DNA of 7,575 nucleotides from a virus (lineage: Duplodnaviria; Heunggongvirae; Uroviricota; Caudoviricetes). Below are positions 3,001 through 6,000 of this stretch, one piece after another; the first letter of the stretch is position 1; each line of letters starts with the position of its first letter. Made by a program: the position numbers. The stretch is from the IMG/VR virus record IMGVR_UViG_2534681674_000011; one strand, given 5' to 3'.

Positions 3001-6000
3001 TCTGTCATGAAGGGCACAAAATAAACGCCCTCACTCTCCCTGTTTTTATACCCGCCGTACACGGTGTCGTACTGGGTAGCGTATGTATTTTTCCAGTAAT
3101 ACGTCGTGTCACCACAAATCCACGGCACATCTGCAGCACTGCCACCATGGCACTGCGCGTTAAACACGGAGAGGTCAGCACGAAACTGTGTCAGCATGGC
3201 TGTAAACAGCGCAGGTTGCTGTGCGTGGGTGGCGGCGCTCATGTCAAACTCTCCCTGCATCCAGCACACCGCCAGCAACACATTTTTCGGGTTCTTCTGT
3301 AATGCAGCTTTAGTGCGCGCAATCAGGTCCTGATATAACGGTTTACCCACACCCCAGCGCGCCGAATCCTGGCTGGCCCCCGTGTCCGCACTGAATGTCC
3401 CCTCCGCGCCCTGGGTAAATGCCGAACCACCACGACAGCATGGTACCAGCAGGATCCCCGCGTTATTCGGGATATACGGGAGCAGTTTTTTGGCAATATG
3501 TAAGCCCTGGCCGACACAGCCGTACTGCCCTTTGCTCAGGTCTGCCTTCGGATGATTCAGCGTACTCATATCCTGCACATCATGCAGGCAGTGGTCGGCC
3601 GGAATAATATCGTTATATCTGCAGGCAGCCCCACCCGGCGTCACTGTACTGCGGCGCGCCAGCTGTTTAATGCGCGGATCCGGAGCATCGTATGAATTCG
3701 GCAGCGGAAGCCCTTCACCGTAAGCCATGGCATTGGACTGCCCGGCCAGTACGATGACGTAGTACCAATCCGGCTCAGTTGCACCACTGACCACCACATC
3801 ACCTTCTGCTGTAATCGCCTGCATCAGGGTATAAGGGGTTATGGCCACCGGACTACCAAACGGCTGCCAGCCCTCTTTCAGTTTGTGTGTCAGCTTTTCC
3901 GCAAGGTCTGACGGCGACGCCGCCCTGACAACATCATAATGTTTAAATGTCATTATTCCTCCCGGCCGGGATAGTGTATTAAATCAGATATGGAGTGGGC
4001 TGTAGTCCGGAAGCCTGAATGACACACGGGGACTACAGCCCAAAAAACGAAAAAGGCCACGCAGTTGCGCAGCCTGATAAACCCTGGTTAAAATCCACAC
4101 GATAAAAATGACAATGCAAGTATCTCATGCTGTTGCCCGAACCCACTCGGGCTTTTTTTTGCATGTAAAAAGGCTCCTGCGATGAGGAGCCTGGATATAT
4201 GCCTAATCTCTGTATACAGCATGATGCCGGGTGCCTCCCGGTGAGTTCGGCCTGGTGCCACCAAACCCGCGTATTCTCGCTTACGATCATCAAAGAGATC
4301 ATACCGTTCACCAGTCGCCCCTCCGCACAGGGGGATTCACCATGCAGAAATTTTCTAACACATCTATTATCAGACCGGCAACAACTGACTGAATTGAGAT
4401 GTATTTAACATTTATGAATCTCCGCCTGCTATTTTCACTGAGCTATTCTGAGTCAACGAAAAATAACTTCGCTGAATCCCCCTCCATTATGACAGGCATT
4501 AGTTTTAATGGTTACAGTCATCCCCGTAATTTGCGCACTGAGAAGAAGAGACTGAAGATTCCATCTGTTGGTAAATAATTCTTTATCACCCACTTTAACT
4601 GTAAAGGTATCGTCATCATTATATTTTGTATACTCCACCTTTCCAGTTACACAATCAGGCGTCGCCAGCGCACTTGCTGAAAAAAATGAAAGCGATGCAG
4701 CTATTAATAATGTTTTTTTCATTTTACCCCCTCAACTGCTAATAGTTCTGCGCATCAGAATTGCCCCCAGAGTGGATGAATCCCACAATATTTTATTGTG
4801 CGTAATCCCACGGACTCTTCCATCTGCCGGACACATAGAAGGAAACTCATCAGATGCCATTCTGGCAACTCGCGATGCATGATGATGACAATTCAGTATT
4901 AATGCCACGCTTCCCAGAATTGCATTAATGCTTCCAAAAGAAATTCTTCCTACACGAACAGAGTCTTGTCCATGATAGTCAGGCAGGACGCTACTCAACC
5001 TTCCCCAGTTCAATGTAAGATCAACATCTTCAGCAGTCATTACATAAGAACGCCCACTGAGATCATCCAGTGTTGTACGAAATCCCCTCTGTATTTGCCG
5101 AAAACGTAAAGCTTCAGCTGTCACAGTAACAAACCGTAACATCGCTCTTGCCACAGACTGCGTCAGTGAGGTTCCACTATGCGACATTAAATCCAGATAA
5201 GAAGTAGTCAACGAATGGCGATTTATCTGCATCCCCGTACGACTGATCCCTGCAACACGCTGTAACGTGGTATAGCTACTGTCACCAGACAATGTAACCG
5301 CTGTTGTACCTGGAAAGGTAACATGTGAAAAATCAGCAAAGCGATAAAAAACATTATTTGTCCTGTTAACAAATCCTGTCACATATAAATTATTTCGTTC
5401 AACAATAAGCCGTAGATTATTAAACCGCCCTTCCTCTGGATCTATCCCTCTGACATCAACTGCAAACAAATTATCCCCTGAGCCACTATCAATCATCAGT
5501 AAAGACGTACCTCCTGATGAAATAGTCTGTAATGGAGTACCTATTGCAGAGCGAATGACATTCAGCGAATCTACATACGTCTTTGCAGTCGAGAAGTCTA
5601 AGGTAAATTCCTTCGCCACCACATTAACTGAAAAGATAACAAAGAAAAAAGTTAGCACTCTAAAAATAATTATTTTCATATTACACAATACTCCTTGAGC
5701 ACCATACGATAACTATATTCTTGACATCCTCCACGCCCTGAAGGACGGCGTTTTACGGCGCACCGGATAAACGTAACAATAACGTAATGAAAATGATAAT
5801 CATATTCAAAGAGAGCTGCAACCTTAACATATCTGGTCAGATCTCATGCGACTACTTGACGTACGTAGATAACAACATTTATTGATACACAGGATGTTAC
5901 GGACATAAAAAAGCCAGCCACTGGGGGAGGCTGGCAAACTCGTAGAGCAAAATGCTGTTACGCAAACTTCGTTACAGGGTCATCCTGCAATACAAAAAAT

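Follow-up and report, generated by a model that had tools for sequence, protein, structure and literature searches.

In lambdoid prophages, a convergent pair of small RNAs (STnc100/EcOnc27 and AsxR/AgvB) is known between the moron coding sequence and a conserved ORF (Tree et al., 2014, PMC4104026). Within the transcripts of the Shiga toxin phages, RNase E cleaves a GU|AUU site in StxS (PMC7547250), and depletion of this enzyme delays lysis and lowers phage yield, while the final amount of Stx2 is not lowered (PMC8443680). For the late RNA of lambda, PMC7547250 mentions, through its ref. 49, processing by RNase III in vivo.

Here we describe a stem-loop that belongs to this same intergenic region, from the moron coding sequence to the esterase gene nanS-p. 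It lies outside both sRNA genes and both Rfam models (STnc100 and AgvB/AsxR), and at all loci examined it is linked to the terminator hairpin upstream of it, itself overlapping the anti-sRNA promoter where the anti-sRNA gene is present. In kind, it is an ordinary leader or intercistronic mRNA hairpin with a predicted function, and several described elements resemble it in part. Like hp1 of the ompA 5' UTR and the hairpin at the papBA boundary, it is a stable hairpin placed before an AU-rich single strand and a ribosome-binding site, with the Shine-Dalgarno (SD) sequence left free; it also has a U-rich single strand on its 5' side suited to RNase E and stands at a boundary between functionally different cistrons. 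However, it has no sequence relationship with those hairpins, and their stem is near the 5' end of the mRNA, whereas here such an end is predicted only. With the RNase III sites of the lambda late leader, lambda sib and T7 R1.1 it shares a phage polycistronic transcript, a leader or intercistronic position and a conserved stem, with a central internal loop in most alleles, but the stem (13 bp; 8+5 bp in most alleles) is shorter than in typical RNase III substrates. The two terminators that precede it (4192-4171 and 4075-4054) likewise have a GC-rich stem on the same strand, and several of the leader classes defined below share their pyrimidine/U-rich 3' flank; in contrast, the loop of the leader hairpin measures 21-30 nt and the allele studied here lacks a U-tract.

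The whole stretch of DNA that was analysed (7575 bp, the window) is the late region of an H-19B-like Stx1 phage with its genes on the minus strand, and positions 831-7575 are 99.6-99.9% identical to phage H-19B and Stx1a-converting phages. The late genes follow the order NinG (6804-7409), Q (6186-6719), stx1A (4732-5688), stx1B (4453-4722), nanS-p (2103-3953), S and R. The 616-aa ORF of nanS-p carries DUF1737, SASA esterase and DUF6645 domains; past it, on the same strand, lie the holin S gene, a DUF1327 protein gene and an endolysin fragment, left by an IS3-family element that cuts the endolysin gene at about 830.

The spacer between stx1B and nanS-p has the convergent sRNA arrangement of PMC4104026, with nanS-p as the conserved ORF. 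Downstream of stx1B, an STnc100-family sRNA occupies 4161-4374 on the minus strand (190.7 bits, E 1e-44), and the terminator scan places its terminator at 4192-4171. Convergent with it is an AgvB/AsxR-type anti-sRNA gene at 4100-4159 on the plus strand (AgvB 56.6 bits for a gathering score of 56; AsxR 46.8 against 63), with a scanned terminator at 4135-4152 followed by T8 and a putative promoter, read from the sequence, composed of TTGCGC (4065-4070), 18 nt and TAAAAT (4089-4094). The pair is closed on the late-operon strand by a terminator-like hairpin at 4075-4054, also found by the scan (AGGCUGCGC-AACU-GCGUGGCCU), which overlaps the -35 element TTGCGC of the anti-sRNA promoter. Since it contains two G.U pairs, this hairpin folds only as minus-strand RNA; in alignment A2, pair 115-128 can form in 41 of 42 alleles on the minus strand and in 0 of 42 on the plus strand. 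Next comes a U-rich linker of 11 nt, UUUUCGUUUUU (4053-4043, minus), predicted to be single-stranded, which serves as the tail of the terminator and at the same time flanks the leader hairpin on its 5' side, and which on the plus strand reads as an A-tract just upstream of the anti-sRNA -35. The leader hairpin itself spans 4042-3996 on the minus strand, and the remaining nanS-p leader (3995-3954) is an AU/pyrimidine-rich spacer with a constant length of 42 nt, in which the palindrome CCCGGCCGGG (3970-3961) overlaps the SD sequence GGGAGGA (3963-3957). The first-pass annotation of this stretch, made from the sequence alone, had missed this context, both the terminator directly upstream and the known pair of STnc100 and AgvB/AsxR-type RNAs.

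That annotation had reported a perfect 12-bp inverted repeat in the nanS-p leader. The repeat is real, and an inverted-repeat search extends its arms by one further T-A pair to 13 nt, 100% complementary (3996-4008 and 4030-4042), with 21 nt between them. On the minus strand the 5' arm is therefore 4042-4030, the loop 4029-4009 and the 3' arm 4008-3996, and since the nanS-p ORF occupies 2103-3953 on this strand, the repeat lies 43-89 nt upstream of the ATG. It is the longest perfect inverted repeat of the window among those with loops of up to 40 nt. The view that a 12-bp stem is unlikely by chance in about 500 bp holds: analytically, about 1e-3 stems of 12 bp and 3e-4 of 13 bp are expected per 500 bp, and in dinucleotide-preserving shuffles (n = 300) stems of at least 12 bp appeared in 1% and of at least 13 bp in 0.3% (1/300). 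As RNA, the minus strand is predicted to fold at the repeat with -28.0 kcal/mol, into a GC-rich stem of 13 perfect bp plus 4 weak inner pairs. We also agree that the repeat is followed by no U-tract on either strand (minus flank CUCCAUAUCUGAUUU, plus flank AAAAAACGAAAAAGG), and the terminator scan of the window did not flag it; the U-tract UUUUCGUUUUU, that of hairpin 4075-4054, directly precedes the repeat on the minus strand.

We compared the hairpin with known elements of several kinds. An Rfam 15 scan of the window gave no match at 3990-4050 even at E<=1, the only neighbours being STnc100 and AgvB/AsxR. The repeat arms had no match in the supplements of Tree et al. (2014) by sequence search, and we found no description of the hairpin in the literature searched; it is apparently undescribed. 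HnrS, a multicopy prophage sRNA, was rejected as its identity because HnrS ends in an intrinsic terminator. The promoter scan from the terminator to the ATG detected none on the nanS-p strand, and a promoter overlapping the hairpin, suggested by eye from the extended -10-like TGATTTAAT, was dropped because this motif is not conserved in the other classes. We also considered an invertible loop, since a 171-nt query showed only 95.9% identity to phages with which identity is otherwise 99.9%. However, the loop is identical in these phages, and all 7 differences fall at 4043-4103.

For the comparison among phages, leaders were gathered by exact-pattern scans of viral contigs (with the nanS-p SD region, the anti-sRNA terminator and the repeat arms), by a protein-anchored scan and from BLAST matches in phage and E. 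coli genomes; the viral protein scan was limited to the closest 80 relatives. The 250 leaders reduce to about 50 distinct sequences, which form nine classes, A to I. All nine have the stem-loop at the same position, each with a terminator hairpin and a U-rich linker upstream of it, and the distance from the end of the stem-loop to the ATG is 40-42 nt in eight of them and shorter in class I. Among the exact-match contigs, 97/97 carry the same 45-nt unit. Conservation of the stem had been proposed in the first-pass annotation as a check, and its outcome is divided: the hairpin occurs in 9/9 leader classes, while the perfect 12-bp stem is not general, as most alleles have an internal loop. A perfect stem, of 13 bp, is found only in class A, which includes the window and comprises Stx1/H-19B and PPyecE-type prophages. 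In classes B-D (Stx2 phages of Sakai/933W, and Sakai Sp15), a helix of 8 bp is separated by one or two U.U or C.U mismatches from a second one of 4-5 bp; a long stem is retained in E and F through many G.U pairs; and class I (Shigella phage 75/02 type) reaches 16-18 pairs, with C-G/G-C where class A has U-A/A-U, closing the centre of the stem but with wobble pairs elsewhere. Classes G and H fold weakly (-10 to -13 kcal/mol). The internal loop is 1x1 or 2x2 in most alleles, with U.U in most classes, and the terminal loop of class A has 21 nt, compared with 25-28 nt in B-D and about 30 nt in I. A perfect closed stem is not a requirement of the element, and that of class A is probably a quasi-palindrome that was closed through template-switch correction or recombination. 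In the 3' arm, CCGGA is nearly invariant across alleles and its pairing partner varies (UCC, UCU or UUC). A pure stability role does not explain this near-invariance, which hints at an additional, sequence-specific constraint on the arm.

When a covariance model built from class representatives, R1, was run over 593 kb of phage loci, each locus contained a single copy, without exception on the nanS-p strand and in the position of the nanS-p leader, which also led us to discard a dispersed repeat (REP/BIME, MITE or IS end). For the hairpin of the window, R1 scored 67.5 bits on the minus strand versus 18.2 on the plus strand. Of 5426 complete E. coli genomes, 1163 (about a fifth) carry this leader family, each in 1-10 copies (median 3; roughly 3970 copies in all), and eight divergent matches in E. 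coli genomes contained no further allele class. A scan of genome contigs with the NanS-p N-terminus gave two phage-type loci only, the others being chromosomal nanS. Homologues of nanS-p also exist without the hairpin, in E. albertii and in two viral contigs, where STnc100 and nanS-p are joined by an unrelated AT-rich leader of about 620 nt with no anti-sRNA match, terminator hairpin or stem-loop. Expression of nanS-p therefore does not generally depend on the hairpin. At the loci that we examined, the stem-loop and the terminator hairpin always occur together and leaders that lack one lack both, so that the hairpin travels with the terminator hairpin and the leader of ~125 nt.

The variation among alleles follows the pairing of the stem. 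In 12 class representatives, 81.8% of the cells are paired versus 33-44% in controls with slid partners, and changes on both sides occur at 7 of 16 pairs versus 2.1+-1.1 in shuffles (0/500). Across 45 distinct alleles the corresponding values are 79.3% versus 34-38% and 7 pairs versus 1-3. These shuffle statistics overstate independence because the allele classes share ancestry and have recombined; in addition, alignment A5 was fitted to the model, and the tested structure was derived from the same sequences. A comparison of strands is also informative, as neutral transitions in a DNA palindrome are expected to yield G.U and A.C equally. Read as minus-strand RNA, the alleles have 75 G.U cells (15 column types) versus 9 A.C cells (5 types), the A.C cases all being rare alleles. 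For the divergent classes E and F, the predicted folds reach -20 to -23 kcal/mol as minus-strand RNA but only -2.5 to -12 when the plus strand is folded. The terminator hairpin next to the stem-loop has this polarity too. The covarying substitutions that the first-pass annotation had asked for are thus present, as compensatory changes together with an excess of G.U over A.C on the late-operon strand, and its proposal of a stem-loop on the transcript of the nanS-p leader gains support from these changes, from the strand bias and from the conservation in nine classes. The changes on both sides of the stem, the excess of G.U on the minus strand and the variable length of the loop speak for a hairpin in RNA and against an operator in DNA, and indicate selection on a hairpin of the late/nanS-p transcript. 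The comparison shows here a conserved, single-copy and position-fixed element, which appears to be kept by selection on minus-strand pairing.

What this hairpin does may be explained in several ways. In lysogens, where Q is lacking, it may act as a back-up terminator or pause hairpin behind 4075-4054 that is ignored by the Q-modified polymerase, so that read-through from Pstx1 or the STnc100 promoter is kept from nanS-p and the lysis genes. We consider this unlikely, although it has a real chance. The hairpin stands directly behind two same-strand terminators and is always accompanied, in the loci examined, by the terminator hairpin, and its 3' flank is pyrimidine/U-rich in most classes (B-D, F and G), with 6 U in 9 in B-D (UCCUUAUUUU) and 5 in 9 in F (CCUUUUCUG). 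However, the flank of the window class, CUCCAUAUC, has 3 U in 9 and that of class I 1-3, and these are the classes with the strongest stems. Furthermore, a canonical intrinsic terminator was rejected because the loop is long and the flank of the window has so few U: loops of 21 nt, and of 25-30 nt elsewhere, far exceed the roughly 3-8 nt of intrinsic terminators, and the terminator scan was negative for the hairpin. Another explanation, which we regard as improbable, is that the repeat has no function and is what remains of a quasi-palindrome, such as a decayed terminator, that recombination has moved together with the leader. The mismatches of most alleles, the weak folds of classes G and H and the nanS-p leaders without a hairpin would fit such a history, but the compensatory changes on both sides at 7 pairs and the ratio of G.U to A.C (15 to 5 column types) argue against neutral decay, which would yield neither.

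The stem-loop could also be a site where RNase III separates the stx/sRNA RNA from the nanS-p/lysis RNA, as is reported for the lambda late leader, one of the roles that the first-pass annotation had put forward. A double-stranded stem is conserved on the transcript strand, class I reaches 16-18 continuous pairs, and in most classes the stem is interrupted midway by an internal loop, as happens in some phage RNase III sites. Good RNase III substrates typically have roughly two helical turns (roughly 20 bp), possibly interrupted by an internal loop, and the 13 bp of the window, like the mismatched 8+5 bp of most alleles, seem short for this. We regard the proposal as quite doubtful. There is a slim chance that the hairpin is a regulatory element that sets nanS-p translation in lysogens, either by pairing of UUCCGGA, nearly invariant at the junction of loop and 3' arm, with CCGGGAG of the SD region (7 bp), or as a two-site target of the CsrA/Hfq type together with AGGA at the SD sequence. 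In this sense, the variable partner of the nearly invariant CCGGA, the constant length of the spacer to the SD sequence and the strong crosslinking of the ECs2972 mRNA to Hfq in uninduced cells are suggestive. Nevertheless, the complementarity between UUCCGGA and the SD region is short, is lost in classes G and I, and is absent as a pairing from the minimum-free-energy folds. An action at the DNA level, as an operator or activator site at -58 to -105 of the anti-sRNA promoter or as a cruciform or recombination site, is very improbable. The A-tract and the -35 of this promoter come just after the repeat on the plus strand, and the cluster of 7 substitutions relative to the nearest Stx1 phage (4043-4103), read as a recombination patch, starts exactly at the edge of the repeat. 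However, an operator would be expected to have fixed spacing and conserved half-sites, while here the arms are separated by anything from 21 to about 30 nt and differ at 4-7 positions between classes; moreover, the stem is kept by G.U pairs, which would be mismatches in DNA or when read on the plus strand. The protein-binding DNA operator suggested previously is therefore disfavoured, as the spacer length varies and wobble pairs exist only in RNA.

We tentatively favour, with a probability of about 0.35, that the conserved RNA stem-loop opens the nanS-p leader as a boundary or stabilising element of the nanS-p/lysis mRNA; a stabiliser was also among the roles suggested in the first-pass annotation. 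A 5' stabiliser would be recognised by a conserved RNA structure on the mRNA strand within the 5' UTR, and the covariation and strand asymmetry described above are of this kind. Structure in the nanS-p leader would begin with this stem-loop, immediately behind the terminator closing the stx/sRNA moron module. During lytic growth, Q-modified RNA polymerase would pass the upstream terminators, and the late transcript might then be cut in the single-stranded, U-rich linker between the two hairpins, at an RNase E-type site. The upstream stx/sRNA fragment would retain its 3' terminator hairpin, and the nanS-p-holin-endolysin fragment would start 0-4 nt before a very stable 5' stem-loop, which may protect it against 5'-end-dependent attack by RNase E and shield the ribosome-binding site from upstream sequence. 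Both the cleavage in the linker and the stabilising effect are entirely inferred. The linker of the window, UUUUCGUUUUU, contains a GU|UUU motif like those of RNase E, whose role would be conjectural, and motifs GU|UUU, GU|AUU or GA|AUU, of the type that RNase E cuts in StxS, occur in most classes; linker and 3'-tail values across classes were taken only from folds showing the expected hairpin. The commonest class-A allele, with the linker UUUUUUCAUUUCUU, has no strict RN|WUU match, and because strict matches are not universal in the linkers, the motif adds little weight. The Sakai homologue of nanS-p, ECs2972, is among the top 50 Hfq-crosslinked coding sequences, and this, together with the phenotypes of RNase E depletion, provides circumstantial support for a processing boundary.

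The amounts of toxin, esterase and lysis protein that a Shiga toxin prophage makes, induced or not, are set in the stretch from stx to the lysis cassette. An RNA structure at the boundary between stx/sRNA and nanS-p/lysis would be a cheap and testable handle on the differential stability of the late transcript or on read-through, and a boundary hairpin could explain that depletion of RNase E affects lysis and phage yield and not toxin yield. There is also a slight chance that a dedicated regulatory hairpin, acting through UUCCGGA or through CsrA, Hfq or an RNase, uncouples nanS-p expression from that of the downstream lysis genes. If this were true, lysogens would make sialate esterase without lysing, with a growth advantage on mucin sugars, and the several copies of the hairpin per EHEC genome would constitute a co-regulated set.

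All seven differences between the window and the nearest Stx1a phage in the 171-nt stretch compared (3940-4110) fall at 4043-4103, while the two are 99.9% identical overall across 6.7 kb. The near boundary of this patch coincides exactly with the edge of the hairpin in the nanS-p leader (3996-4008/4030-4042), and the patch spans the A-tract together with two parts of the anti-sRNA gene, its promoter and its variable 5' (seed) end. No match above 98% to the window leader was found among the phages and complete E. coli genomes of the collections searched. The segment looks like a short recombination patch whose source was a PPyecE-type prophage. 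As to the hairpin in other loci, one arm of allele L165 has four nucleotides (GGCT) duplicated, and in contig L087 the assembly is interrupted (N) within the hairpin.

The anti-sRNA gene (4100-4159, plus strand) barely reaches the gathering threshold of the AgvB model (56.6 against 56) and stays under that of AsxR (46.8 against 63), the 3' part being kept and the 5' seed, CGAUAAAAAUGACAAUGCAAG, being divergent. Probably, neither GcvB nor FnrS is the sRNA targeted by it. The -35 element of its promoter is overlapped by the terminator hairpin of the opposite, late-operon strand (4054-4075), which exists only as minus-strand RNA because two of its pairs are G.U. In other allele classes, AGGC/GCCU of this terminator is swapped for CCUU/AAGG, and these changes are compensatory.

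Closer to nanS-p, CCCGGCCGGG (3961-3970) is a perfect 10-bp palindrome overlapping the Shine-Dalgarno (SD) sequence. Its variants CCCGCCAGGG, CCCGACCGGG, CCCGCCCGGG and CCCGGAAAGGGG retain CCC...GGG, which suggests a small hairpin that would sequester the first Gs of the SD. In the RNA of the minus strand, CUUCCGG (4009-4015), a nearly invariant motif where the hairpin loop meets the 3' arm, is complementary to CCGGGAG at the SD (3957-3966), with 7 bp including one G.U. This complementarity could represent an anti-SD or kissing interaction, and the pairing is absent from the minimum-free-energy folds.

A partial IS3-family (IS629/IS1203-like) element occupies window 1-830, ending in TGAACCGCCCCGGGAATCCTGG (830-809), with an ALIL frameshift pseudoknot (379-495) and an HTH_Tnp_1 ORF (450-776). 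The endolysin R gene is cut short by it, which probably leaves this copy of the prophage defective in lysis. An IS of the same type is found in phage PA28 (L289, about 382-383), 25 nt downstream of the hairpin and just before the SD palindrome.

In three nanS-p homologues (L233, L197 from E. albertii, and L280) the leader is AT-rich and unrelated, lacks both the hairpin and the terminator hairpin, and gives no match to AgvB/AsxR, with STnc100 still present about 620 nt upstream of nanS-p. At the end of its contig, L197 also contains another STnc100 copy, this one incomplete. Sp15, the Stx1 prophage of strain Sakai, has a class-C leader with an imperfect hairpin (L292, 4116-4625) and, in contrast with the H-19B-type window, no AgvB/AsxR match at gathering score in this region. 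Its nanS-p (ECs2972) ranked 48 among Hfq-crosslinked coding sequences (Tree et al., 2014, PMC4104026). From the differences between Sp15 and the window in leader class and AgvB/AsxR match, it follows that Stx1 phages are mosaic in precisely the stx1B-nanS-p spacer.
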